From Bdellovibrionota bacterium (lineage in GTDB: Bacteria > Bdellovibrionota_C > UBA2361 > CALJRW01), in contig JBGSMD010000011.1 in assembly GCA_041740355.1 (NCBI GenBank), positions 1-64,000 on the forward strand: a stretch of 64,000 nucleotides of DNA, given 5' to 3'. Positions 24,793-42,001 of this stretch are shown in pieces (within the stretch, counting starts at the first letter, position 1; every line of letters begins with the position of its first letter). Under the pieces are notes generated by a model that did not search any database, had not been told where the DNA came from, and worked only from the letters and a program-made list of their open reading frames with translations. Made by a program: the position numbers and the translations under genes.

Positions 24793-25842
24793 ATGTTCAA
24801 GTTATTATCCCTTTGCACATTAGTTCTAATAACAACAAATTTATTAGCGCAGCCCGAATTTAAAATTGGAGCAGTCCTGCCATTGAGTGGAGATGCACAA
24901 GCTTTTGGTCAAGAAGCTAGGATGGCACTGGAACATGCTCTGGCCGATAATCCTGGAAAGAAATATCAATACAAACTAGTTCTTGAAGATGATGAGCTCT
25001 CTCCAGCAAAAGCTTCTTTAGCAGCAAAAAAATTATTGGATATTGATGGTGCCAAGGTGATCTTCTCCAATTGGTCATACGGAGGAAATGCAGTTGCAAG
25101 TGCCCTGAAGAATAAAAAAGTACTAAATTTAGCATTTGCTTGGGATCAAAAAATATTAGAAGTTGGCAATAATAACTTTATAATGGCAGGTCCCCCCGAA
25201 GATTTGGCCCAAAAAATAATTCTAAAAATTAAAGCCGAAGAAAAGAAAAGTATTATCCTAATTGGATTTCAAGAAGCCGGAGTTGAGTTTGCATTTAATG
25301 CAATTGAAGATTTTGCACAAAAAAATGGGATTAAGGTCATAAAGCGTATTGAAATTAATCCTGCGGAGCAAGCTGATTTTCGAAGTTTACTAATGCAAAT
25401 TAAATCTTTGCAGCCGGAATACTTAGTGACCTGTTTGATTTATCCTCAAATGCTAGAGTTGCTTAAGCAAATGAAGATATTAAAAATTGATTTACCAATT
25501 GGAAGTATTGGCCAACCTCCTTTTGGCCCTGAGCTAAAGCCATTTCTCCCGAAGATTTGGTGGACGTTTGATTACTTTGCAAATCTTAAAGATCAGATCG
25601 CAATTTCGAAAAGGACAGGATTAAACGATATATCAGGCTATCCAAGTTATTATGAAGGATTGAAAGCGATTATTAAAATTTCCGAACAATATTCCTCCGA
25701 GGAAATACCATCGAATGATTATCTGCAAGAGGCACTGGAGAATTATAAAAGTGATAAATCTATACTCGGACAAATATCCTATGAAGGACGTCGTTTCCGC
25801 AGTGAGAATGCTCTTATGATTGATCAACTCGCTCGTTACTGA
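24793..25842 (+). CDS. LivJ/LivK-like periplasmic substrate-binding protein
   Basis: Signal peptide, FKIGAVLPLSGDAQAFG, LVLEDD, DFRSLLMQIK. Confidence 0.85.
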   Translation: MFKLLSLCTLVLITTNLLAQPEFKIGAVLPLSGDAQAFGQEARMALEHALADNPGKKYQYKLVLEDDELSPAKASLAAKKLLDIDGAKVIFSNWSYGGNAVASALKNKKVLNLAFAWDQKILEVGNNNFIMAGPPEDLAQKIILKIKAEEKKSIILIGFQEAGVEFAFNAIEDFAQKNGIKVIKRIEINPAEQADFRSLLMQIKSLQPEYLVTCLIYPQMLELLKQMKILKIDLPIGSIGQPPFGPELKPFLPKIWWTFDYFANLKDQIAISKRTGLNDISGYPSYYEGLKAIIKISEQYSSEEIPSNDYLQEALENYKSDKSILGQISYEGRRFRSENALMIDQLARY

Positions 25843-27364
25843 TCTTGTCAATCCAAAAGGCATCTCGTCCAATTAGAAAATAGTTGGTTATACCCGCATG
25901 TAAATTTAGTGATACAGGAGCCACATTTAGAACAACATATTCTTTAGAATAATTTTCGCTTTTACAAGTTAAACTTTTTCTAAAAAGAAATTCCAAACTT
26001 GGCTCCACACAAATATTTATACCTTGCTTATAAAGTTCTAAAATTAAGAGGGCGGTTATATTCCATGATTCTAAATGGGGCATTCTTAAACGATAGTTGA
26101 TCGTCGGATCAAAAATTTTAGTTTGCTGAGTAACGCTTTGTTCTAATTTGCAGTTCTTCGGTTCGTATCTACGAGAGAAATTGTAATTTGTCAGTCCGGC
26201 AACTAAGCAAGAACTTAAAATTATGTTCAATAACGGCGAACTTAAGACTTTCCATTTATTGCAGGTGAAAGATAAATTAGGAATTCTAAGCAGGTTTGCA
26301 ATTAATTTTTGGTAAACAATTATAGCTAAGGTAAAAGTTAATACTTGAGCCACGGCATAAAAGCTGAATAAATATCCATAATCATTACCTTTTAGACCAT
26401 ACGCAAAATAAATCGCAATTACATTAAGTATTAAGGTTAGCTGAGTTAAGAGTTTAAATTCGAAATCGAGCCGATGATAAGTGACAATGATACTTAACCA
26501 AATAAGAGAGAACCAAAGTGTGGAAAATGTAATATGTAGTTTTTTTGGCCAGAGATGATTAATAAAAATTTGGATGGTGTCTTGAAAAGAATTGGAATGT
26601 TGATTCAGGGAAAGGTAATTCCAAACCTTTAATGGATTCGAGTTGTCTTGATTAATTATTAAATCTAAAACTAGGGGAGCAGTAGAAACCAAAATGAGCG
26701 TGATGCTTAACAATATCGATCTTGACCAGACAAAATTATAGTTTCGCTTAAATAAATAATGTATTAATCCCCAGACAAAGAAAACTACGGCAATCATTGC
26801 ACCGATTAAATGATTAGAGGATACAAATATTGAGCTGATTGTGACAATCGGCAAATAGCCTTGTCCATAGATTATTAATGCGGGAAAGCTAATTGCTAAT
26901 AAAAGTAATGGTGCCGGCAGTGTACTTGGCCCCCAACTTCCAATGAAGTATGTCCTTAAAAAACAACAAATGACTGCAACTAGTAAAATTAAACAGTAAC
27001 TATTTTTTTTAGTTAAGCGCTTAAAAATTATTAAGCTTGCTAAAATACAAAATGAGTTAATTAAAAAACTAATTAATTGATACTTGCTCATCCAGTATTG
27101 GCTGAACCAAACGTATGGTTCCAGTAAGGCGTAGATATAAAAATAAGTTGGCAGTGGATGATTAAACTCAAAACGACTGTAAGGGCCAGAAAAGACAATC
27201 CCATCTTTAGCTTGCTCCACCGAGAGTGCTAGTAGCGCATAATCACCACTCTGAGGGCAAAAATATAATAACTGTTCCCAATTAAAATAAAGAAGCATAC
27301 CCATAAATAGAAATCCCAGGACGGGCACAGCAAAATTAAGTTTTTGGATATCTTTTGTGAACAT
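25814..27364 (-). CDS. Multipass membrane protein, possible GT-C-type glycosyltransferase
   Basis: 516 aa, >10 TMs, first loop SGDYA...GPYSRFEFNHP. Confidence 0.5.
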   Translation of the reverse strand: MFTKDIQKLNFAVPVLGFLFMGMLLYFNWEQLLYFCPQSGDYALLALSVEQAKDGIVFSGPYSRFEFNHPLPTYFYIYALLEPYVWFSQYWMSKYQLISFLINSFCILASLIIFKRLTKKNSYCLILLVAVICCFLRTYFIGSWGPSTLPAPLLLLAISFPALIIYGQGYLPIVTISSIFVSSNHLIGAMIAVVFFVWGLIHYLFKRNYNFVWSRSILLSITLILVSTAPLVLDLIINQDNSNPLKVWNYLSLNQHSNSFQDTIQIFINHLWPKKLHITFSTLWFSLIWLSIIVTYHRLDFEFKLLTQLTLILNVIAIYFAYGLKGNDYGYLFSFYAVAQVLTFTLAIIVYQKLIANLLRIPNLSFTCNKWKVLSSPLLNIILSSCLVAGLTNYNFSRRYEPKNCKLEQSVTQQTKIFDPTINYRLRMPHLESWNITALLILELYKQGINICVEPSLEFLFRKSLTCKSENYSKEYVVLNVAPVSLNLHAGITNYFLIGRDAFWIDKISNERVDQS

Positions 27365-27419: not shown

Positions 27420-28577
27420 TCAGGAACTTCTAAGCCAATAGAAATTATTCGGAAGTTGGTGAATTAAAACTAATAGTTTCAAAAGACTTTTTTGGGCGTA
27501 AGGCTCCTTAATCGAACCATATAAAATTGAATGTGTGACAGCTTGAATAATAGTTTCTTTCTGCTTTACTAAAAAATTATCCTTTAGTTCTATAAACAAG
27601 TCATTATAATATTTTTCAATAAAATGATCTAACTTCACTTGCCAGGAAAGTAATTCCGAATAGGAACTGACAGTATAGGCAAATCGCACAAACTCTTGGC
27701 AACCTTTTGATATTGGAGAATCGAATAATGGGAGTAAGATAAAGATTGATATTAATTTTAATCCTGAAATCTTTATAACTTGATCTGGATTCTTGCCTTT
27801 ACGACGCTGTGCTTTATACTGATCGGCTATAAATACAGAGAAAAAGTCATTAATTGCAGACTTTTCAGAGATCGTCATTTTATTTGCTAAATCAAAATCA
27901 CCAGCCATAGCTAATAATGTCGCATAACTAAATTCTAATCCCAAATGTGGTTGGATTGCTTGGCAAAGCTGCTGATAAGTTTTGTCAGCAAATAATGAAT
28001 TATTGACACGAGAAAATGCCCTGAGATTTTCTCTATTAATTGGTGCAAAAATTATCTGAGCGTCTAGGTCTGGAATTAACATAGAAATATATTTTTGGCT
28101 TGCGATGGTACTAAAGATACCTAATTGGGCCCTAAAAGAGCGACCTGTTTTTAAGATTGAGGATATTTTAGGACTTGGATCCAGTACTTTTATTACCCTA
28201 TTAAATTGCAGTCCTGTATGGGAAAGTTCTAATGATAAAGAATCAGTTGTTGGGAAATGACTACCAACTTTTAAGTTCTTTAAGGCATTCATTTTAGAGG
28301 CAGGTTCGAGTAAAGGAAGAAAAGTGAAAATATCACGATCTCCGATCCACTGTATCGGAGCAATCAGGGAGTTAATTGGAGCGATTAGCTCTGCTTCCAG
28401 TAGTTCATAGGTTGTTGATTCTCCAGACCAAACTAGTGAATCATCAGGTTTAAATTGATCACAAAACAAATCCTCAGGATCTGCAAATAGTAAGGGACAA
28501 GAAAAAAATGTAGTTAATAATACTAAGCAAACTTGGCTAAGAGACATGAATTTCAACTTTTTCTTAAATCCCACCAA
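27420..28577 (-). CDS. Hypothetical exported protein
   Basis: 385-aa ORF, signal-peptide-like N-terminus (alternative ATG start at 28547); divergent from the RT locus. Confidence 0.55.
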   Translation of the reverse strand: MVGFKKKLKFMSLSQVCLVLLTTFFSCPLLFADPEDLFCDQFKPDDSLVWSGESTTYELLEAELIAPINSLIAPIQWIGDRDIFTFLPLLEPASKMNALKNLKVGSHFPTTDSLSLELSHTGLQFNRVIKVLDPSPKISSILKTGRSFRAQLGIFSTIASQKYISMLIPDLDAQIIFAPINRENLRAFSRVNNSLFADKTYQQLCQAIQPHLGLEFSYATLLAMAGDFDLANKMTISEKSAINDFFSVFIADQYKAQRRKGKNPDQVIKISGLKLISIFILLPLFDSPISKGCQEFVRFAYTVSSYSELLSWQVKLDHFIEKYYNDLFIELKDNFLVKQKETIIQAVTHSILYGSIKEPYAQKSLLKLLVLIHQLPNNFYWLRSS

Positions 28578-28692
28578 GCTTCGATAATTAATTGATCGAG
28601 TTTCTTGTACATTTTAATCAACAAATTTTGAGAGTTTAACTTTAATTGGTTTTAGGACACTAATAAGTATAGTAACAAAGATTTTAATTGTA

Positions 28693-28698
28693 TATAAT
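28693..28698 (+). promoter_or_regulatory. -10 box of the putative RT-associated ncRNA
   Basis: Perfect TATAAT; the expected start site (~28704-28705) coincides with the 5' arm of the closing stem; -35 is weak. Confidence 0.5.
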
Positions 28699-28702
28699 TA
28701 AT

Positions 28703-28837
28703 ATGCTGGGCAGTCGCCGAAAGGCTTCCCCATTAAACTTGGGAAACTACTGTTAAAAGCTTGCGGGGATAGGTAGTGGTTTCTAGAGTGTTTAGGTGTT
28801 GCCTTTCTTAGCAACATTCAAAATTAATGCCCAGCAT
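28703..28837 (+). ncRNA. Putative structured RT-associated ncRNA (retron msr/msd-like or DRT-like topology)
   Basis: Closing stem ATGCTGGGCA (28703-28712)/TGCCCAGCAT (28828-28837); internal hairpins GCC-GAAA-GGC, TTCCC/GGGAA, GAAACTACT/AGTGGTTTC, TGTTGC/GCAACA; GC-enriched island upstream of an RT. Confidence 0.65.
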
Positions 28838-28940
28838 TTCCTTCAATCTGCATTATTCTATTAGTAGTGATTAAGTCTTGCCCTAGCAATAATTTTTCAC
28901 CTCAACCAGATGAGGACTGAAGGACTTCAAGGATCATTAG

Positions 28941-29084
28941 ATAGAACGTCCAAAAAGTAAATTATGGAAGAAAATTACTTTTTGTGACTTTATATTCCCC
29001 AGAAAGGAAACCCCATATTTTATTACAAAAAACAAGTTGCCCTATTTTATTGTTAAGTAATCTATTTTTTGGAATAACAATATA
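28941..29084. repeat. Dispersed hairpin repeat, copy 2 (in the RT leader)
   Basis: ATAGAACGTCCAAAAAGTAA...TTACTTTTTG...TTTTTTGGAATAACAATATA; both ends match the 42061 copy. Confidence 0.75.
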
Positions 29085-29113
29085 TTGTTGAACTAGTTAA
29101 CACTTACTATGCT
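29085..29113 (+). promoter_or_regulatory. Possible promoter directly upstream of the RT
   Basis: TTGTTG-N17-TATGCT ending 9 nt before the ATG; no Shine-Dalgarno. Confidence 0.35.
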
Positions 29114-29122
29114 ATTGCTCAG

Positions 29123-30397
29123 ATGAATTTTTATCAACAATTACTATCCCCAGAAACCTATCAGAGTATTTTTAGGGAGTTAGAGAAAAAATCAAAAAAT
29201 GATTTTTTGCTACTTAACAAGGCACCTATCTATAAAAATTTAACTTTACGGTGGTGTCTTAACAATCAAAATAAACTGATTAAATATTTTCAGGAACAAG
29301 TTCGAAAGCAGACTTATGCGCCACAGCTTCGTCATCAAAATATCATTTCAGTGGATAAAGAGAGAACAGTCTATAGTATCAATTGGGTAGATAAAATTTT
29401 CGAACAGGCCTTAAGTAGGTTATTATTTAAACATGCTAGTGGTAATTTTAGTAGCTCACTCTATTCTCATCGCCCGGGATTTTCTAACAGACTAGCTCTG
29501 ACTAATTTAGCAAGCTATTTCAAAGCCAATTTAACCAGAAGGCATTTTATTATCAAGAAAGATATTAAAAGCTATACAGATACAATTAATCCAGAACTAT
29601 TTGTTCAACAATTTGCCCAGCAATGCCCCAATCAACACCCATATTTTTGGACAGTTTTACGATCCTTTATTTCTCCGGATTATTTAACGCTTCATACGAA
29701 ACAGCCCGCGGCACTATCCTTAGGGGCACCAACTGGTTCAAGTCTGACTAATTTTATCGCAAATTTTTATTTGCAGGATTTAGATTTTCAGCTTGCTGAG
29801 AAAGTGGATTTTTATATTAGGTTTGGAGATGATTTCTTCTTAACAACTCAAAATTTGGATTCTATTTTGGAATCTGAAAAACTTTTATCTCAAACTATTA
29901 ATGAGCGTGGGTTAAATTTTAATACCAAAAAGACACAACGCATCATTTTCAATGCGGAAGAGGAGGTGGAAGGCTTTACCCCCAAACATACATTAGAATA
30001 TTTGGGATATAAACTAAGTCACAAGGGCAGTATATTTCTTGATAGCTCTAAAGAAATAAAATTAAAACGTAACTTGCAGTTTTTAATTCGTAAGGGGATA
30101 GCTAGTAAAAAAACCTTACCAAAAGAACAATTATTGATACAGACCATTCAGCAGGTTAATTTCATCATTAAAAATTACCAGATCAGTAATTATCTAGGTG
30201 ATTTGATCTTTTTTTGTGATGATTCGCTAAGAATTAAACGATTAGATGCTTGGCTTGCTTCTACGATCCTAGCTTTTGTATTTAGAACTAATAAGAAAAA
30301 TGCCTTTGTCCGGTGTAATTTTAAAGAAACACGTAGCAAAGGACTATTATCTTTGCAATATTTCAAACATTTAAAATTTCGCGGACATGAATTTTAA
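29123..30397 (+). CDS. Reverse transcriptase, group-II-like/unclassified, stand-alone
   Basis: RT motifs in order: KERTVYSINWVDKIFEQAL, LYSHRPG, KKDIKSYTDTI, GAPTGSSLTNFIANFYLQDLD, YIRFGDDF, NTKKT, LEYLGY; short thumb-like C-terminus, no endonuclease domain. Confidence 0.93.
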   Translation: MNFYQQLLSPETYQSIFRELEKKSKNDFLLLNKAPIYKNLTLRWCLNNQNKLIKYFQEQVRKQTYAPQLRHQNIISVDKERTVYSINWVDKIFEQALSRLLFKHASGNFSSSLYSHRPGFSNRLALTNLASYFKANLTRRHFIIKKDIKSYTDTINPELFVQQFAQQCPNQHPYFWTVLRSFISPDYLTLHTKQPAALSLGAPTGSSLTNFIANFYLQDLDFQLAEKVDFYIRFGDDFFLTTQNLDSILESEKLLSQTINERGLNFNTKKTQRIIFNAEEEVEGFTPKHTLEYLGYKLSHKGSIFLDSSKEIKLKRNLQFLIRKGIASKKTLPKEQLLIQTIQQVNFIIKNYQISNYLGDLIFFCDDSLRIKRLDAWLASTILAFVFRTNKKNAFVRCNFKETRSKGLLSLQYFKHLKFRGHEF

Positions 30398-32600
30398 GAG
30401 TCTACTTAAATCAAGCGAACGTGATCGAGAACGCGGAAAGCAACTTCAAAACTTAATTACGGGCCAAGATCTCAAATCTTATTTGCAATACTTATTATAT
30501 CGTATTCGGTTTCCAATTATGGGAAAGCTTCTTTTCAGATTTATTACAATCTTTGAATTAGCCTTAATTTTTCAATTATTTTCATTTACTACTTTCACAG
30601 ACTTGTCGTTATTCCTATTCGTTTATTTTCTTAGCAGGCAAATTTTAAAGAATATATACAATTATTCACGCGTTCAAATAAGCAATTTGCTAAAGCGTAA
30701 TAAATTATATGCAGCGCAGCAAAAGTTCAAATCATTAATCTTCTTAATAATATTTTGCTCTGTTGTTTATGCAGCAATGGCAGCCTTGGTTATTTCATTG
30801 CTAGCAGCAACAAATGACCTTAATTTTTATTATACCTTGATTCTTGTAATTCTTTTGCCTTTGGAGCTGATCTCCGGTCTACTTTGGAGTATCGTCTATT
30901 TAGAAAGTCGATTACCAAGAAAATTTACTCTTCTTTTGGGATTAAGATTAATACCTATCCTCACGATGGTTTTAACTTATCAATTAGGCCCAATCCTTTA
31001 TTTGTCGGCAGTACTATTAAGTAGAAGTCTAGAAAAAATTTATTTATTACAGGTTGCTTGGAAATTTCTCAAAAAACAGGGATTTTGGGAGTCCTATGGT
31101 CAAGTTAAGGTAAAGTATCAAATTCGCTTATCAAAATTAGCTATTAAATATTTTATTGTTAGTTCGGTACGACCTTTCTATTATTTGCTTACGGGGATTA
31201 TTGTTTTTAGTAGTGGGGAACAAAATTGGACAATCTATTTAACCTATTATTTTCTGCTGAACTTCAATCTTTTTTTCCTAACTCAACCAAGCAGATCACT
31301 GGGTTTTGACTATTTTAAATTTATCCAGACTGGTCAGGAAAAATTAGCAGCTCGCCTAGCCGCGAGATTAATGACAATCACATTTTTTTGTTCATTACTT
31401 CTTATCTTGGCTTCTTATTTAGTCTTTGTTAACTCACCATATTTGAGTTTAATACTTCCTAGTTCAGTAGCTGAATATTTCCTCTATTTTTTAGCAGCTT
31501 TAGTTTTACAATCAAGATATCAAGTAATTTTTAATTTAGCTCAAATCATCGGCCAAGAAAAGTATTTCACTAAAGGTTTGCTTGCTATACAGCTAGGCTT
31601 AGCACTTAGTTCGAACTATATTTTTCTAATTTATTTCGATTATAATTTACAATCAGTTTTCTTAATAGAAGCAATAGCTTTTTTCATAGCAACTATTTAT
31701 TTATCCCACAAATTTAAGCCAATACTCAGCCCCATTTTTCATGAGCAAGTAAGAAATCAGATTACAATGGCACCGCTACTTGCAAATAGTAACTTTGAGT
31801 TGTTAGTCAAAGGCTTAGTCCTCTCCGAACGTCCTTATAATTTTTATTTAGTTGTGTTCTCGGAGCAATTTATTCCTGAAGATTTAATCAAGAGATTCTC
31901 ACTTCAAAAAACATTTTATAAAAGATTTTTAGCTAATTCATATTTATTTATAGTTGCGGAAGATCAACCACTCCCTGATTTAATGATCCCATATCTTAAA
32001 TTCATGTATAAGATTGATTTAGATAGTAATACTGAGCACCTGATTGATGAAATATATCAACTATTTCATAAATATGAATTTTATAAGCCAGCGAATCACC
32101 GAAGATTTTTAAAATTAAGTAGCAAACCAGAGGAGGAAGAACTTCAAAGATTTTATGGATTAAAGAATCCTACTGCAATAATATCTAACAATCGCTGCAA
32201 GTATTTAATCAATGATTCGAAAAAATGGTTTGAGAAATATCATTTATATTACTTAAGGGGGAGTCACACAAAACAAGTCATTAGTAGTGAACTTAAGGGT
32301 GGTTTAGTTTGGAAAAGTTCCGATTGCTGGAAAATTTTTAATTTAAATCAATATAATCCTGCAGAACAAGATCAGCTAAGAAATACTGCTAATTATCTTC
32401 ACTTAAAAGATTACATTAACTCTTTAAAAAGCTCCGAGATAATAATAAAGTTAACAATGTTAGAATATTTAAGTTTTATTAAAAGTTTTAGAGATATTCT
32501 TCCCTTAATTGTGACAAAGAAATCTAATGGCAGAGAATTTGCTGTAGCTTCGGATCCAAGCTCCCCACGTTATTTATCAATTAAGAAGGTGATTTGTTAA
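30387..32600 (+). CDS. RT-coupled multipass membrane protein (~12 TM, MATE/MOP-flippase-like layout) with soluble C-terminal domain
   Basis: 737 aa; hydrophobic segments over aa ~45-440 in two similar halves, then ~290-aa soluble tail; start overlaps the RT stop by 11 nt; the flippase fold is inference. Confidence 0.6.
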   Translation: MNFKSLLKSSERDRERGKQLQNLITGQDLKSYLQYLLYRIRFPIMGKLLFRFITIFELALIFQLFSFTTFTDLSLFLFVYFLSRQILKNIYNYSRVQISNLLKRNKLYAAQQKFKSLIFLIIFCSVVYAAMAALVISLLAATNDLNFYYTLILVILLPLELISGLLWSIVYLESRLPRKFTLLLGLRLIPILTMVLTYQLGPILYLSAVLLSRSLEKIYLLQVAWKFLKKQGFWESYGQVKVKYQIRLSKLAIKYFIVSSVRPFYYLLTGIIVFSSGEQNWTIYLTYYFLLNFNLFFLTQPSRSLGFDYFKFIQTGQEKLAARLAARLMTITFFCSLLLILASYLVFVNSPYLSLILPSSVAEYFLYFLAALVLQSRYQVIFNLAQIIGQEKYFTKGLLAIQLGLALSSNYIFLIYFDYNLQSVFLIEAIAFFIATIYLSHKFKPILSPIFHEQVRNQITMAPLLANSNFELLVKGLVLSERPYNFYLVVFSEQFIPEDLIKRFSLQKTFYKRFLANSYLFIVAEDQPLPDLMIPYLKFMYKIDLDSNTEHLIDEIYQLFHKYEFYKPANHRRFLKLSSKPEEEELQRFYGLKNPTAIISNNRCKYLINDSKKWFEKYHLYYLRGSHTKQVISSELKGGLVWKSSDCWKIFNLNQYNPAEQDQLRNTANYLHLKDYINSLKSSEIIIKLTMLEYLSFIKSFRDILPLIVTKKSNGREFAVASDPSSPRYLSIKKVIC

Positions 32601-32656: not shown

Positions 32657-34381
32657 ATGCCTTACATACTATTATTCTTTTTTATTCTGCTCTTTAATCA
32701 GCAATTTTTGTTAGCCGAAAATAAGCCAATGGTTTCCATCTCGGCTAAGGATTTACAATTTAAATGCTCAGGAACCAATAGCGATCAAATCTTGATTATT
32801 ACTAAGCAAAATAAACGAATCGTTAAGTTTCCATATTTTTTTAGTACGCGATTAATTAACAAAAGTCTTGTTTGTCAAAAATTTGAAGAATATCTTAAAG
32901 CAACAAACTGGGATTTTGATATGCAACTAGAGGAGGTAATTGACCCCAACGGTGAAAAAGTTTTTCAGGACATAACTAACAATCTGCTGAGTAAGTGTTT
33001 AGAAGCAGGGTTGTGCTATCGCACGTTCTTAGACCTTCCATTGATAAATCCTAATCTTTTGAATTGTCATGAAAATCTAACTTTTGCAAGATTACTAGAG
33101 AAAGCTAAGCCAAAACAAAAAATCAAAAGTATTAAAACAATTCATGATTTACAAATTAAAGCCCATCCTGAATTTCCACTTAGTAATATTACGTTAGAAT
33201 ACCTTAACGATCGAACAGTTAACGACCTATATTTATCAACTATGTCTCTTGGGAATTTCTCCTTAACACAATTTATTAATGCTGCCCGAAATGGAAATAA
33301 TAAAAATATTTATTTTAACTATGATCTGGGCATTGTTTTACCAGAGTTACAAACTAGGGCCCTATTGTTTTCAACTAATCAAATTGAAAGATTTTTTCAA
33401 ATCCCCAATTTTGGTGGGCAAGATTTTGAAATGGCTTATCATTTGAAGTTTATTGCATCCCCGCAAAAAAATACTAGTATTCTTTCCAGTATGAACTTTG
33501 CCTCATCAGCTAAAACTAATTACATTGATTTTAGCTATGCCTTCGAAGATTTAGGGATTCGCGATGAACTAATCTCACTGTCTGAACGGAATCAACAACG
33601 CTTCTGTGCCTCAAAAGAAGATTACACCTGTTTGTCAAACTTAATTGTCGATTCGCAGGAGTCTCAACATAAAGCCCTGAAAGAAATTTATCGTAAGTCA
33701 TGTCAAGTATTGCCAGCTTCCCACTATAAATCATCGGGATATCTTTTCCTTTCCGAGTTAGGAAATAGTGAAGACTTTATTATTGATAAAATTAATCAAG
33801 CAAAGTTTGAGTTGGTTTTACTCGTTTCTCAAATTACTAATAAAAATATCTATCAGGCCTTAAAACTTGCTCAGGATCGTGGCGTAAAAGTTTATCTTAG
33901 TTCGGCTAATTATTCAGGTCAGTTTAACTCCACCTTTGATTTTTATTATCCCAATGTAAATTCTAAGGATACTTGGACATTAATTCCCCACATGAAAGTA
34001 ATGGTAATAGATCGCAAATTAATGGTCTTTGGAACGGGAAACTTTTCAATTAATGGATTGCGACATAATAGTGAAGTATTTGCTCAGACTGATAATCCCG
34101 ATGCGATAAAGACTGTCTATGACTATTTAGCGGTCTTTGCCCAAAATGCTAATCCAAGCCTGGCGAGAGCAGTATCTCCCGAACATAAAAAGTTAAATTA
34201 TTTAGTTTGGGGAAATGTAACGGATCCAGAGATGCATGGGACAGAGAAGTTTACTGAATCTCATTTGCAAAACTATCGTCGCTTTAATCAAACGGGTATC
34301 CAGTATATCGAAAAGTGCCGTTTAAACCACTTATTATTTATTTCTAAAAGAAATTATAAGGCTTGTTTGTCTCAAAACTAA
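32657..34381 (+). CDS. Exported phospholipase D-superfamily protein (two HKD-type motifs)
   Basis: Signal peptide; HLKFIASP..SSMN (H262, degenerate) and HMKVMVID-x6-GTGN..NSE (H445, canonical). Confidence 0.85.
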   Translation: MPYILLFFFILLFNQQFLLAENKPMVSISAKDLQFKCSGTNSDQILIITKQNKRIVKFPYFFSTRLINKSLVCQKFEEYLKATNWDFDMQLEEVIDPNGEKVFQDITNNLLSKCLEAGLCYRTFLDLPLINPNLLNCHENLTFARLLEKAKPKQKIKSIKTIHDLQIKAHPEFPLSNITLEYLNDRTVNDLYLSTMSLGNFSLTQFINAARNGNNKNIYFNYDLGIVLPELQTRALLFSTNQIERFFQIPNFGGQDFEMAYHLKFIASPQKNTSILSSMNFASSAKTNYIDFSYAFEDLGIRDELISLSERNQQRFCASKEDYTCLSNLIVDSQESQHKALKEIYRKSCQVLPASHYKSSGYLFLSELGNSEDFIIDKINQAKFELVLLVSQITNKNIYQALKLAQDRGVKVYLSSANYSGQFNSTFDFYYPNVNSKDTWTLIPHMKVMVIDRKLMVFGTGNFSINGLRHNSEVFAQTDNPDAIKTVYDYLAVFAQNANPSLARAVSPEHKKLNYLVWGNVTDPEMHGTEKFTESHLQNYRRFNQTGIQYIEKCRLNHLLFISKRNYKACLSQN

Positions 34382-35570: not shown

Positions 35571-36839
35571 TTAGTGCCGAGCACCAGTATATCTTAAGGT
35601 TTCTACGCCACCATTATTTTGAGAGAGAACATTAGCATTTGTTCCATCAAACTGAATTTTCATAACCATACCTTGATCGTTGAAACTATCAGTGATCGTT
35701 ACAAATCCACTGGAATTCAAGAAGATAAAAAGCTTATTACCTTCAGGATTGATGTGTTGTTTAATAGCTGCTTGGCAGACCTGACATGGAAAACATCGCT
35801 GTTGATTAACTTCTGGATCAGGGTGCGCGTTATAACTTCCTGAAAAAAGGATCATGCCATCTATTAAGCCTTGAGGTTTCTTTTTAAGCATATCGCTCAT
35901 GGAAGCACGCTCACCACAAAATCCTTGTCCATTATTTCCATAATATAGATTAGTTCCAGCAAAAATTTTATTTTCACCCATAATTGCAGCTCCATAGGCA
36001 GTGCCACCAGAGGCAGAGCGGTGGTGTTTAGCAAATGCAGAAGCCAGGACGGCGGAATGATAAGCCGATCTTAAGCGTTTCTTTTCAAATGTTTCTCCAA
36101 AGTTATTTAATACAACGTCATAAAAAGCATCAAAGTCAACATTTGTTATTTGCTCAATCACACTTGGCGGAGTTACGCTTAGTAAATTTTTTAAAGATAA
36201 ACCTTCCTTGTGGAGTTTATCTTTAGGAAGAATGCTTTCTAACTTTCGCATAATATGTGAAGGTGAGGCTGGATCGGCTTGAAAGGATGGGTTTCTAGCA
36301 GTAAGAATATCCGTTGTACCAATTTGAATATTTCTTCCATGATCGATTAATTTGATATTATGAACTTCTTGATAAAATTCACACAGCATTAAGTCTTCAC
36401 CTCCTTCAATACAGTATCCATTTTGCGATAACGTAAGGACTGCTAATTTTTGTTTGTTTGAAGAGTTGTATGATCCGGACATATTGATTTCTCCAAATGC
36501 TGTCATACCAAGTGGTAAGTCAGCAGTGCCCATTCCGCGTTGCACGCGTACGCCAGCAGAGACCTGTCCATCATTGCTAATTAAACAAAGACCATATTTT
36601 AAATGATGAGGATCGAAGGCTTCTCCAAAACTTGTTTCTTTGGAATGAATACAGTTAAGGATAGCCTGACGAATTGCTTTTTCAGGTATTGGGTGACTAA
36701 AGACCTTTTGCAGTCGGGCTTGCAGTTGTTCCACTAGCTGGGGAGTAATTAATCCAGCACGCCCGTTAGATTTACTTCCTCCCGAGAATCTTTCACCTTC
36801 CAGTGGGGACATTAATGGAGGTCTTGGTATAAACAACAT
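35571..36839 (-). CDS. Cytidine-deaminase-fold protein with extended/duplicated N-terminus
   Basis: C-terminal YGAAI...FAGTN...CGERASM...FPCQVCQ zinc motif. Confidence 0.7.
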   Translation of the reverse strand: MLFIPRPPLMSPLEGERFSGGSKSNGRAGLITPQLVEQLQARLQKVFSHPIPEKAIRQAILNCIHSKETSFGEAFDPHHLKYGLCLISNDGQVSAGVRVQRGMGTADLPLGMTAFGEINMSGSYNSSNKQKLAVLTLSQNGYCIEGGEDLMLCEFYQEVHNIKLIDHGRNIQIGTTDILTARNPSFQADPASPSHIMRKLESILPKDKLHKEGLSLKNLLSVTPPSVIEQITNVDFDAFYDVVLNNFGETFEKKRLRSAYHSAVLASAFAKHHRSASGGTAYGAAIMGENKIFAGTNLYYGNNGQGFCGERASMSDMLKKKPQGLIDGMILFSGSYNAHPDPEVNQQRCFPCQVCQAAIKQHINPEGNKLFIFLNSSGFVTITDSFNDQGMVMKIQFDGTNANVLSQNNGGVETLRYTGARH

Positions 36840-40534: not shown

Positions 40535-42001
40535 TTAAACTTTCCTTTTATTACGGAGGACCTCAGCTATTTTTCTGCGAAGCAAGTTTTCCTTATTTTT
40601 TATTTTTCCACTAGTTTCCGCAAACCATTCTTCACTATTTAAGTGAATTACTGAATATCCCCGGGCCGTAAATATTTTATCTTGTAAGATGTCATTTCCA
40701 ACATGCCCTTCGGAAACTTGTCGATTAATAAAGTGATAGGGCACGCCGTCACATTCAATAATTAATTTTAAATCAGGATTCTTTATTGTCACCACAAAAT
40801 CTACGACAACTCCATCAATGTTTTGGTATTGATTGACGTTAATTTTATTACCTTTTTGATTTCGAACACTTAGGTTTTTTAGAACCTTTTTTAAGGTATT
40901 ATTTACTTCTAGTTCAAAGCCATTTACTTGGGATAATTGCTTTTCTTGATCTTTTAAAGAGAATTTAATTGGAAAGGGATCTTGTCTAACTCCAAGAGCC
41001 ACCACTGTTTGGTGTAACTGTAGATTGCCAAAAACCGAATTTCCTTCATTCTTAATCGCAGACATACTTTGAAGTAGAAAGATCTTTGCCAAATCTTCAT
41101 TTAAAATTGTTAAGCACCAGGCAGCATTTGCAATAACTTGAGTCCAGTTTTTTTCGGGACTTTTTGCTAGCTGATCAGTAATCACATTCGTAAGTTTTTC
41201 GGTAAGAGCCAGATCCGTAATACGCAGAACTGCTAAACTGCGCAGGGTTTCGGTCACTGTTTTAAAAGATAATACTTCGACCTTTTCCTTTAAACCTTTT
41301 ACTAATGATTGTGAAAATTTTAAATCTCTAAAATTTGCTTTTGCAAAGCAAATTTGCAGTTTAGCAAAATCTTCAATTTGATTCGATCCTTTATCATTAG
41401 TCAGCATTTGCTGCGCAGCTTCGGCAAGGATTTGATATGCTTTCAAGTTAAAATGACCAGAATTTAATAAGCATTTAGAAAATTGTTGTAACTCTTTAAC
41501 TGAAGATGCTTTAATTGTGGGGGCATTATTCTCAATATACTCGGCGACAGTGATACCTAATATTTTATAGGAAATGTTTTCTTGTTGAAGAATATTTAGA
41601 ACTCCACAAAGTTTTTGAGTAGACCATTTTGTTGATTGATCTTTAATTAAATTAATTGTCCGATCGATTAATGTACTCTCTAATTTTAGACCGAGTGCTT
41701 GATAGGCAGCTAAGAAATTAGGAAATTCTTTGATCGTGGTTTTGTCTAAAAATGTAGCTTGAGCAAAATGCGCGCCAAGATTTAAGTTTTTAATTTTCTC
41801 TCCAATTACTCTTTTAAATGTTTGTTTATGCTTGTCAGTCAAACCTAGATAATTATTATAGATTTTAGCAACAAAAGAGATGATTGTTTGTGGCGGAAAA
41901 ACTGCTCGTGTCTGAAAAGTTTGGAGTTCTAGTTCAAAAGCTTTAGGATTAAATGCCGAATGATCAGGGGGCAGATTGTTAGGGTCTATTTTTGCCGACA
42001 T
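40535..42001 (-). CDS. Helical-repeat protein with C-terminal RAP (FASTK-like) domain
   Basis: Alpha-helical repeats (CFAKANF, SLAVLRI, IANAAWCLTIL, QLHQ) then VVDF...IIECDGVPYHF...QDKIFTARGYSVIHLNSEEW. Confidence 0.7.
   Translation of the reverse strand: MSAKIDPNNLPPDHSAFNPKAFELELQTFQTRAVFPPQTIISFVAKIYNNYLGLTDKHKQTFKRVIGEKIKNLNLGAHFAQATFLDKTTIKEFPNFLAAYQALGLKLESTLIDRTINLIKDQSTKWSTQKLCGVLNILQQENISYKILGITVAEYIENNAPTIKASSVKELQQFSKCLLNSGHFNLKAYQILAEAAQQMLTNDKGSNQIEDFAKLQICFAKANFRDLKFSQSLVKGLKEKVEVLSFKTVTETLRSLAVLRITDLALTEKLTNVITDQLAKSPEKNWTQVIANAAWCLTILNEDLAKIFLLQSMSAIKNEGNSVFGNLQLHQTVVALGVRQDPFPIKFSLKDQEKQLSQVNGFELEVNNTLKKVLKNLSVRNQKGNKINVNQYQNIDGVVVDFVVTIKNPDLKLIIECDGVPYHFINRQVSEGHVGNDILQDKIFTARGYSVIHLNSEEWFAETSGKIKNKENLLRRKIAEVLRNKRKV

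Follow-up and report, generated by a model that had tools for sequence, protein, structure and literature searches.

A predicted multibranch RNA that accompanies a non-retron reverse transcriptase operon encoding a MOP-fold membrane protein and a PLD-superfamily enzyme

Positions 28703-28837 of the window (the whole 64,000-nucleotide stretch of DNA that was analysed) probably specify, on the + strand, a free-standing non-coding RNA (ncRNA) of about 135 nt. This RNA would be the RNA subunit of a four-part module that also comprises a reverse transcriptase (RT), a membrane protein with a MOP fold (X) and a PLD-superfamily enzyme (Y). We give a probability of roughly 0.6 to this reading, in which the module is DRT-like and the RNA acts as scaffold/template. 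Direct reading of the sequence found every feature named in the preliminary description of this DNA (the stems, the GNRA hairpin, G28713 and the TATAAT hexamer) at its expected place. The parts of the element are the following.

28693-28698, + strand: -10-like hexamer TATAAT, 4 nt 5' of the 5' arm of the closing stem
28703-28712, + strand: 5' arm of the closing stem P1, ATGCTGGGCA, a perfect 10-bp complement of 28828-28837
28713, + strand: G directly 3' of the P1 5' arm, the branch point proposed in the preliminary description
28716-28725, + strand: hairpin P2, GCC-GAAA-GGC, with a GNRA loop
28726-28730 and 28741-28745, + strand: complementary arms TTCCC and GGGAA
28727-28731, + strand: pyrimidine strand S1, UCCCC, which may serve as 5' strand in a pseudoknot or, paired with GGGAA 28741-28745, in a local hairpin
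28737-28740, + strand: P3a 5' strand ACUU, partner of 28786-28789
28743-28751, + strand: P3b 5' strand GAAACUACU (DNA GAAACTACT), partner of 28775-28783
28752-28774, + strand: P3b loop, which in the alignments holds the most conserved single-stranded sequence, UUAAAAGCUUGC, together with S3
28765-28769, + strand: S3, GGGGA, within the P3b loop
28775-28783, + strand: P3b 3' strand AGUGGUUUC (DNA AGTGGTTTC), partner of 28743-28751
28786-28789, + strand: P3a 3' strand GAGU, partner of 28737-28740
28797-28816, + strand: hairpin P4, UGUUGC-CUUUCUUA-GCAACA (arms 28797-28802/28811-28816), a variable region in homologues
28817-28827, + strand: single strand J4/1, UUCAAAAUUAA, between the last hairpin and the P1 3' arm, a candidate template by position
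28828-28837, + strand: P1 3' arm, TGCCCAGCAT, paired over a perfect 10 bp with 28703-28712

The window is rich in perfect 10-mer inverted repeats spanning 90-220 nt (37, whereas 30 block shuffles averaged 18.4), so that a 10-bp repeat by itself is unremarkable. The P1 repeat was the sole one among the 37 with at least 6 G/C (1 observed against 0.13 expected). RNAfold predicted a stable fold for the element (-48.4 kcal/mol, z = -3.64), which none of 200 shuffles equalled. A cmscan of positions 27500-30500 against Rfam with E values up to 10 returned four weak matches of snoRNA type and no known RNA family over 28703-28837.

Covariation in homologues is the decisive evidence that the element is more than a chance fold. 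In the comparison of the window copy with its paralogue L017, 8 of 13 predicted pairs had changed on both sides. For P1, all 36 cells of alignment A5 (window, L016, L017, L018) were paired, and 5 of the 9 pairs had changed on both sides. The inner helices, compared in the four sequences of alignment A8, were paired in 90% of 80 cells, with both-sided changes in 10 of 20 pairs; when the partners were slid by 1-3 columns, only 37.5-47.5% of the cells were paired, and 0 of 500 shuffles matched the observed both-sided changes. P3b was paired in all of its 32 cells in A8 (8 pairs in 4 sequences, 100%), and 6 of its 8 pairs had changed on both sides. P3a had both-sided changes in 3 of 4 pairs and was paired in 75% of cells, because this helix is poorly formed in L016 and L018.

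The preference for the + strand expressed in the preliminary description was borne out. U-G pairs occur in P1 and P3b, and the U-G pair of P3b would become a C-A mismatch on the other strand. The P2 loops across the copies include GAAA, UUCG and GCAA, and GNRA and UUCG loops arise only when the + strand is read. In the homologues, P2 has the form GCC-UUCG-GGC (L016, L018), GAGC-GCAA-GCUC (L037) or GUGG-UAAUA-CCAC (L017), and longer GC stems occupy its position in L039 and L040. A hairpin at the P4 position is also found in L037 and L040, and L017 carries a larger insert there, of about 70 nt. The conserved fold is thus closed by stem P1 and contains the small hairpin P2, the long hairpin P3a/P3b, whose loop is conserved, and P4, which varies; by these comparisons 28703-28837 reads as a real, conserved, structured and strand-specific multibranch ncRNA.

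The sequence comparisons also support the view that the RNA belongs with the neighbouring non-retron RT operon. Five of the six closest RT operons, those in which X and PLD were detectable by tblastn, had the RNA next to them (window, L016, L017, L018, L037). A covariance model built from four sequences (R2) gave four matches in genomes G000 and G001 (E 1.7e-23 to 4.0e-21), each adjoining an RT operon and amounting to one strong copy per RT operon found there; the next best match had an E value of 0.84. More distant RT-X-PLD operons showed an identical order of helices upstream, with unrelated sequences. In two of them, L039 and L040, P1 was 12 and 14 bp long, respectively, and an 11-bp closing stem was present upstream in L043 and, by eye, in L027. 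The long-stem scan found no closing stem of at least 9 bp in L041 and L042. Near L038, a close operon on a 10.8-kb contig, R1 (a model from two sequences), R2, a helix-pattern descriptor and the long-stem scan all found no RNA.

Stems of 9-10 bp were also present in the control regions of GC-rich loci (4 of the 5 with a downstream region: L039, L040, L044 and L045 positive, L043 negative). L044 and L045 were left out of the RNA count because their control regions held stems of like length. R1 and R2 were too narrow, as both missed the L037 copy within 87 kb. The helix-pattern descriptor recovered the known copies, but also many GC-rich matches, and was therefore used as a pointer only. A pattern search of genome contigs with a single RT gave 56 matches and no relatives, and a five-sequence alignment, used as query, returned only the G001 contig. 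A metagenome scan yielded 34 loci with distant RTs (22-34% identity); tblastn found X or PLD in none of the 34, and for this reason they were excluded from the analysis.

The place of the RNA relative to the operon varied. In the window it lies in a 545-nt gap upstream of the RT gene, but in L016 and L018, two of the five close loci, it lies just beyond the PLD gene, the last of the operon, and on the opposite strand; in L017, the PLD gene is divergent from the RNA. An RNA that can precede or follow the operon, and can be encoded on one strand or the other, should have its own transcription signals. The element is not a 5' leader. Of the earlier claim of a multibranch ncRNA upstream of the RT, the ncRNA was upheld by covariation, and the upstream position, true of the window, is not a fixed one. 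As for the claim that TATAAT predicts a start at the 5' arm, the hexamer is there, but the sigma-70 scan listed no promoter at 28693, as no -35 match reached 4 of 6, which leaves the -10-like hexamer as the sole basis of the predicted start. A/T-rich -10-like hexamers were present 1-17 nt upstream of P1 in L016, L017, L018 and L037, which is weak evidence in AT-rich DNA, and a T-rich tract follows the P1 3' arm in L016, L039 and L027. Searches of public sequencing runs for the stretch turned up no RNA run and three DNA-type runs of one study, two of which contained it.

The three protein-coding genes of the module in the window are the following.

29123-30397, + strand: RT, 424 aa, with catalytic RFGDD (Pfam RVT_1, E 5.5e-18)
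30387-32600, + strand: X, membrane protein of 737 aa, second gene of the operon
32657-34381, + strand: Y, PLD-superfamily enzyme of 574 aa (Pfam PLDc_2), third gene

By its profile scores the RT is not of the retron clade, as the preliminary description had also held. The PADLOC retron RT models (RT_I-A, II-A, III-A) reached 33.9-39.2 bits on it, against 103.7 bits for Drt9, 84.1 bits for UG26 and 56 bits for UG17. A PDB profile search gave 115.9 bits for a group II intron RT, 102.8 bits for 9ioa and at most 56.8 bits for retron RT chains. The entry 9ioa (499 aa, titled 'RNA-dependent DNA polymerase'), which we take to be the DRT9 RT, was aligned over positions 36-371 of the RT profile. In the same search, CRISPR-associated and group II intron RTs matched the RT as well as DRT9 did. 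The UG26 model scored 84-104 bits on the RTs of these operons, was the best named DRT model for L040, and reached 388-391 of its 398 positions for the RTs of the window, L037 and L039. On this RT, a generic RT model scored as high as the best named DRT models (Drt9, UG26 and UG17, at 56-104 bits), and so did group II intron RTs. With scores to the DRT models this weak (about 85-115 bits), and equalled or exceeded by those of group II intron RTs, the RT can be placed in class 2 UG only tentatively.

The C-terminal tail of the RT carries a motif LRxxGLxS, the serine of which (Ser410 in the window) lies some 10-15 residues before the end of the protein and was invariant in two sets of RTs (34/34 and 14/14). 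DRT10 RTs are reported to prime from a conserved C-terminal Ser or Tyr (10.1101/2025.10.16.682844, 10.64898/2026.04.29.721553, 10.64898/2026.06.29.735271), and the DRT9 RT from a C-terminal Tyr (PMC12483538). By analogy with DRT10, we infer that the invariant Ser410 may point to protein priming.

X has no match in Pfam or PADLOC, and a word-based homologue search returned only X itself. In the AF2 model, residues 1 to about 460 form a 12-helix MOP (MATE/MurJ/Wzx) fold, followed by an extra C-terminal domain (about 480-737) without an assigned fold. Most blocks of 10 residues within 1-450 had a mean pLDDT of 76-94, with lower values at about 231-250 and 351-360, and the best Foldseek match was 6ids (E 2.1e-6, TM 0.68). 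Hydropathy plots showed multiple hydrophobic helices in 13 of 13 homologues. Y begins with a hydrophobic segment, a signal or an anchor, contains two HxK motifs (His262, His445), and appears to be located outside the cytoplasm, either secreted or anchored. By sequence it matched NucT in the PDB, and its AF2 model (pLDDT 81) matched phospholipase D, PPK1, vaccinia F13 and PLD3/PLD4 in Foldseek; PADLOC gave DrmC-like matches only.

The combination of RT, ncRNA, X and PLD resembles, by analogy, known antiviral RT systems, and phage defence by abortive infection would be the most probable role of the module. Two observations count against this role. The genes around the window do not form a recognisable defence island, and a transporter-like protein together with an extracytoplasmic PLD enzyme would be unusual as defence effectors. 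The open literature searched held no description of an RT-MOP-PLD system, supplementary gene-cluster tables (e.g. Mestre et al. 2022) aside.

Among characterised systems, DRT10 (UG17) offers several likenesses, and the comparison with DRT ncRNAs drawn in the preliminary description was apt. DRT10, as described in 10.1101/2025.10.16.682844, 10.64898/2026.04.29.721553 and 10.64898/2026.06.29.735271, has a separately transcribed ncRNA of about 137-143 nt with a stem that closes its 5' and 3' ends and several stem-loops; its template sits between the last stem-loop and the basal stem, and the conserved C-terminal Ser or Tyr of its RT is the priming residue. A compact RT (about 430-460 aa) and a membrane protein in the operon are further shared traits. 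In contrast to DRT10, the window RT reached only the 56 bits given above on the UG17 model, the membrane protein has about 700-820 aa and a 12-helix MOP fold, in place of a SLATT protein with 2-3 helices, a third gene is present, for a PLD-superfamily enzyme that bears a signal or anchor segment, and the RNA is unrelated in sequence, with no template repeat evident.

DRT9 (UG28) shares with the module a structured ncRNA next to the RT and, as a candidate trait here, priming from C-terminal residues (PMC12483538). Its model is the best PADLOC match of the window RT, but at 103.7 bits this match lies, by our judgement and not by any cut-off, far below the score expected of a family member. Unlike the module, DRT9 has two components, and a universally conserved U tract in its ncRNA templates poly-dA; no such tract is present here. 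The unclassified class 2 UG/Abi group UG26 resembles the module through the scores of its model on these RTs. In Mestre et al. 2022 (PMC9226505), a Vsr-like endonuclease is linked to 9 of 35 UG26 members, whereas an ncRNA, a membrane protein or a PLD enzyme is not mentioned for UG26 there, supplementary tables aside.

In the mechanism that we favour, which is modelled on the class 2 UG/DRT systems DRT2, DRT9 and DRT10, the RT would bind the ncRNA, and the ncRNA would be a scaffold that carries a short template. DNA synthesis would be primed from Ser410 of the RT itself and not from a 2'-OH of the RNA, and the membrane protein and the PLD enzyme would either be controlled by the DNA product or handle it. 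The view of the preliminary description that the RNA is primer/template for the RT is likewise something that we can only infer. Two sites are candidates for the template: J4/1 (28817-28827) and, in the P3b loop, the 5' half, which is conserved. A motif UYAAA(A)UU was found 2-4 nt 5' of the P1 3' arm in four of the five copies (window, L037, L018, L016).

In an alternative reading, which is unlikely but deserves to be taken seriously, the RNA is only a scaffold or regulator, bound by the RT for its assembly or activation, and DNA synthesis either needs no template or takes it from elsewhere, for example from transcripts of a phage or the host. This reading gains from the absence of a convincing template signature. 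For an A-B-A' template repeat of telomerase or DRT10 style in the strand before the 3' arm, 489-1462 of 2000 shuffles were as good, which is chance level. Complementarity between S1 and S3, as in a pseudoknot, was no better than composition (depending on the locus, 79-1225 of 2000 loop shuffles as good); S1-S3 had one covarying pair only, and L016 and L018 are close kin. Moreover, class 1 UG/Abi RTs are reported to make DNA without a template, and two kinds of enzyme that copy other RNAs, the CRISPR-associated and the group II intron RTs, are as close to the RT as DRT9 is. Against a scaffold-only role stand the conserved single-stranded stretches in the P3b loop and J4/1, and the reports that the characterised class 2 systems with such ncRNAs (DRT2, DRT9, DRT10) all use them as templates.

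The likeness of the element to a telomerase RNA core is one of layout only: one helix closes the whole, another precedes a conserved single strand, and a pseudoknot may form. In contrast to that core, the pseudoknot had no statistical support in the shuffles here, and the template is only a candidate. Class 2 UG RTs are reported to be the closest bacterial relatives of TERT (10.1101/2025.10.16.682844). It is a long shot that the module, instead of a conventional abortive-infection system, is a DNA-making export pathway, in which protein-linked repetitive DNA would be made by the RT in the cytoplasm under the guidance of an RNA laid out like telomerase RNA (closing helix, template strand, pseudoknot), passed across the membrane by the MOP-fold protein as DNA or in a lipid-linked form, and trimmed or transferred outside by the PLD3/PLD4-like extracytoplasmic enzyme.

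The preliminary description had raised the possibility of a retron-like msr-msd RNA, in which P1 would correspond to a1/a2 and the RT, with the 2'-OH of G28713 as primer, would make a partial copy of the RNA, resulting in branched msDNA. The RT gene is adjacent, short stem-loops are present, and the terminal inverted repeat is followed by a G that is kept in five AT-rich copies, invariant in the four of alignment A5 and, by eye, in the UAGAC junction of L037. The closing inverted repeat does not discriminate in favour of a retron, since it is also common to DRT10 ncRNAs. The distant homologues L039 and L040 have junctions after P1 (UCA and CCA) without the unpaired G, the RT is outside the retron clade by the scores above, and its invariant C-terminal Ser suggests protein priming. 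The long msd-type hairpin, the absence of which had been noted before, was missing from every fold and every copy. Retrons have the gene order msr-msd-RT, unlike L016 and L018, where the RNA comes after the whole operon and on the opposite strand. Retron-style priming at G28713 thus gained no support, and we consider a retron very improbable.

A still more doubtful idea is that the element acts in cis on the RT operon, as its leader, attenuator or terminator, or else that it is the end of a repeat or mobile element without RNA function. The 545-nt gap of the window and the T-rich tracts 3' of the closing arm in some loci would suit a cis-acting element. The two close loci with the RNA past the last gene and on the opposite strand largely refute it, however, and the divergent PLD gene of L017, the preservation of four helices by compensatory changes, and a copy number that equals the number of RT operons found, unlike that of a dispersed repeat, also argue against it. 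Just as improbable is a relic of group II intron RNA (its RT-binding domain) retained by a domesticated intron-type RT. Among solved structures, those of group II intron RTs did match the RT profile best, but the cmscan of 27500-30500 (E up to 10) gave no domain of such an intron, intron boundaries are absent, and the RT lies outside the RNA.

The RTs that copy their own RNA (DRT2, DRT9, DRT10) each revealed a new mode of DNA synthesis. Should the proposed mechanism hold, the module would add a further pair of RT and RNA, in which a serine is the candidate primer. The partners here are of another kind than in those systems, a membrane protein with a transporter fold and a PLD enzyme apparently outside the cytoplasm, and the question would be how DNA made by the RT relates to an extracytoplasmic PLD enzyme and a protein that resembles flippases. 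One 3.3-Mb genome holds three diverged copies, every one accompanied by a co-varying RNA, which offers a natural experiment on the specificity between RT and RNA.

The noncoding RNA (ncRNA) element at 28703-28837 lies next to an operon of three genes, and inspection of the sequence confirmed all the features that the preliminary description had listed for it. Features and genes are as follows.

28693-28698, + strand, TATAAT hexamer (from sequence)
28703-28712 with 28828-28837, + strand, P1, perfect 10-bp closing inverted repeat (from sequence)
28713, + strand, G beside the 5' arm (from sequence)
28716-28725, + strand, GCC-GAAA-GGC hairpin (from sequence)
28726-28745, + strand, TTCCC/GGGAA (from sequence)
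28743-28783, + strand, GAAACTACT/AGTGGTTTC arms (from sequence)
28797-28816, + strand, TGTTGC/GCAACA hairpin (from sequence)
29123-30397, + strand, reverse transcriptase (RT), 424 aa, Pfam RVT_1
30387-32600, + strand, protein X, 737 aa, no Pfam or PADLOC match
32657-34381, + strand, protein Y, 574 aa, PLD domain

A 10-bp inverted repeat by itself is not rare in the window, where 37 repeats spanning 90-220 nt were found versus 18.4 in shuffled sequences. Among the 37, only the repeat of the element has 6 or more G/C, for which the expectation was 0.13. The + strand of the element folds with an energy of -48.4 kcal/mol (z = -3.64), and no Rfam family was matched over it at E values up to 10. The TATAAT hexamer, from which a transcription start at the 5' arm had been predicted, is present, but a promoter scan reported no full sigma-70 site there. 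The public sequencing runs listed for this organism included no expression data set.

A homologous element was found upstream of the RT in a second locus, L017, with 8 of 13 predicted pairs changed on both sides relative to the window and the hairpin loop sequence kept. Copies in loci L018 and L016 were identified with a covariance model, and a further one, in L037, by inspection. In the model-guided alignment of four sequences, 90% of 80 cells were paired, versus 37.5-47.5% with slid partners, and 10 of 20 pairs were changed on both sides, a number reached by none of 500 shuffles (L016 and L018 are close kin among the four, and the shuffle figures are indicative and not probabilities). Every cell of hairpin P3b was paired (100%) and 6 of its 8 pairs showed compensatory changes; the closing stem P1 was paired in 36/36 cells with compensatory changes in 5 of 9 pairs. 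U-G pairs together with GAAA, UUCG and GCAA loops fix the strand of the RNA, in agreement with the earlier assignment from the GNRA loop and G-U pairs. Searched over four whole genomes, model R2, built from the four sequences, gave four matches (E 1.7e-23 to 4.0e-21) in the window's genome and in G001, each adjoining an RT operon; the next best match reached only E 0.84. In G112, the copy of L037 was missed by this search. We conclude that the element is a genuine ncRNA that accompanies the RT and is not represented in Rfam.

The window's genome (3.27 Mb) carries three diverged copies of the whole RT-X-PLD module, with RT identities of 32-36%, on contigs C11 (window), C16 (L017) and C63 (L016). 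A co-varying RNA of its own goes with every copy, and the arrangements of genes and RNA vary from one copy to another. A genome of the same genus contains one RT operon (L018), and two further operons, L037 and L038, occur in other families of the class; homologues of X and the PLD protein were detectable by tblastn in exactly these six loci. The more distant RT loci L039-L045, from the same order, have the same three-gene layout, in which the RT is followed by a protein of 674-760 aa and, where the contig allows (all but L042), by a third protein of 530-721 aa. In L039 and L040, the two cases tested, this third protein contains PLDc_2. RT matches at E up to 1e-45 were present in 12 of 124 genomes searched in the phylum, and an exhaustive protein search with the RT returned 41 cluster representatives at E < 1e-30. 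The related genome G009 had nine RT matches on several contigs, seven of them with identical or nearly identical scores (six at E 3.7e-12, one at 1.5e-11), a set suggestive of a mobile element in multiple copies, for instance a group II intron.

The complementarity and order of the named strands were checked by script in seven loci. P1 (9-14 bp) is followed by a junction of 2-5 nt, the small hairpin P2, the pyrimidine strand S1, a long hairpin (P3a and P3b) with a 22-44-nt loop, a variable region with hairpin P4 (verified for the window, L037 and L040, three of these seven loci), the short single strand J4/1 and the 3' arm of P1. Element length ranges from 130 to 209 nt. L039 and L040 keep the order of the close copies with unrelated sequences, and their closing stems (12 and 14 bp, respectively) both end beside the RT start. 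An 11-bp closing stem surrounds a longer interior in L043 and, by eye, in L027. L044 (10-bp stem) and L045 (9-bp stem) were left out of the count, because control regions gave 9-10-bp stems in four of the five GC-rich loci with a downstream region. The closing-stem scan gave none in L041 and L042, and R2 and stem searches detected no element in the 10.8-kb contig of L038. At about 8150-8185 of L017 (- strand), its RNA shows an extra region of roughly 70 nt with two copies of GCUAACUACUUA, a 12-nt direct repeat with 5 nt between the copies and itself partly palindromic.

By analogy with class 2 DRT systems, the ncRNA most probably acts as scaffold and template, with priming that would be provided by protein; RT affinities to this family are weak, and the system is only a candidate member of it. 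According to 10.64898/2026.06.29.735271, the DRT10 template is flanked by the last stem-loop and the basal stem, a location that corresponds to 28817-28827 (J4/1) in the window. This strand has a UYAAA(A)UU motif in four of the five AT-rich copies (window, L016, L017, L018 and L037), and the flanking microhomology expected of a DRT10-like template was at chance level around it. In 7/7 loci, the P3b loop contains a purine run, S3, to which S1 is able to pair; covariation is seen at one pair (C:G to U:A). Shuffled loops matched or exceeded the helix length in 79-1225 of 2000 trials per locus, and a local alternative exists for S1, with GGGRR at the base of P3b as its partner. The S1-S3 pseudoknot is a candidate only.

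The G after P1, proposed earlier as a branching G for 2'-OH priming (G28713), occurs in all five AT-rich copies but is missing from the junction in L039 and L040. Ser410 of the RT belongs to an LRxxGLxS motif that lies 10-15 residues before the C-terminus, and it is invariant among the RTs compared (34/34 and 14/14). The priming residue is described as a conserved C-terminal Ser or Tyr in DRT10 (10.64898/2026.06.29.735271) and as a C-terminal Tyr in DRT9 (PMC12483538). The lack of the G in L039 and L040, the invariant serine and these precedents together make protein priming a better guess than 2'-OH priming at G28713.

A retron-like reading of the element fails on RT clade, on the missing msd hairpin, and on gene order, which is not fixed. 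That the RT itself is not of the retron kind, as had been noted, follows from profile scores. The best PADLOC models were Drt9 (103.7 bits), a generic RT model (98.5) and UG26 (84.1), versus 39.2 bits at most for retron RT models. Against PDB sequences, a profile of 34 RTs scored 115.9 bits with a group II intron RT, 108.3 with Cas6-RT-Cas1, 102.8 with the 499-aa RT 9ioa (profile positions 36-371), which we take to be DRT9 although its title reads just 'RNA-dependent DNA polymerase', 63 with DRT2, and at most 56.8 with retron RT chains. Judged by these sequence comparisons, the RT is not a retron RT, and it does not fall clearly into any of the named UG groups.

The position upstream of the RT holds for the window, L017 and L037, where the RNA is also on the same strand, but in L016 and L018 the RNA is on the opposite strand, just beyond the PLD gene. 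Such placement is not explained by a 5' leader or attenuator, whereas a separately transcribed RNA can account for the variable side and strand. For the DRT10 ncRNA, independent expression and activity in trans were shown in 10.64898/2026.04.29.721553. The PLD gene of L017 is divergent from the RNA, and in L018 the 3' arm of P1 (2718-2727) shares sequence with the final codons of the PLD gene, which lies on the opposite strand.

Many hydrophobic helices were predicted for X in 13/13 homologues. Its AF2 model, confident over most of residues 1-460 and poor past 544, matched MATE, MurJ and Wzx transporters in Foldseek (best 6ids, E 2.1e-6, TM 0.68, normalised to target length), and a language-model search pointed in the same direction; X is thus modelled as a 12-helix membrane protein of MATE/MurJ/Wzx fold. 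In its C-terminal domain of about 280 aa, mean pLDDT in blocks of 10 residues is about 23-56 from residue 460, and mostly < 50 over residues 544-737. Y has a hydrophobic N-terminal segment in 12/12 sequences. By eye, this segment resembles a signal peptide in the AT-rich group and a membrane anchor in the GC-rich one. Two HxK motifs occur in Y, at 262 and at 445, of which the latter shows the complete HxK-x4-D-x6-G-[ST]-x-N pattern. The Y model (pLDDT 81) matches two-lobed PLD-superfamily folds, namely phospholipase D, PPK1, vaccinia F13, PLD3/PLD4 and phosphatidylserine synthase. Some of the matched PLD3/PLD4 entries contain bound ssDNA; the predicted fold is compatible with either DNA or lipid as substrate. 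A search of an open literature library found no RT described together with a transporter-fold protein and an extracytoplasmic PLD enzyme.

The surroundings of the module, with a P-type ATPase, periplasmic binding proteins, MazG and a deaminase-like protein, are not an evident defence island. Two ORFs on the - strand, divergent from the RNA (25814-27364, 516 aa, and 27420-28577, 385 aa), had no Pfam or PADLOC match and are not conserved beside the other operons. Two further - strand genes, both less than 8 kb from the module, encode a 422-aa protein (35571-36839) with a borderline cytidine-deaminase match just under the cut-off and a 488-aa protein (40535-42001) with weak REase_MTES_1575/DUF559-type endonuclease matches, all under Pfam cut-offs.
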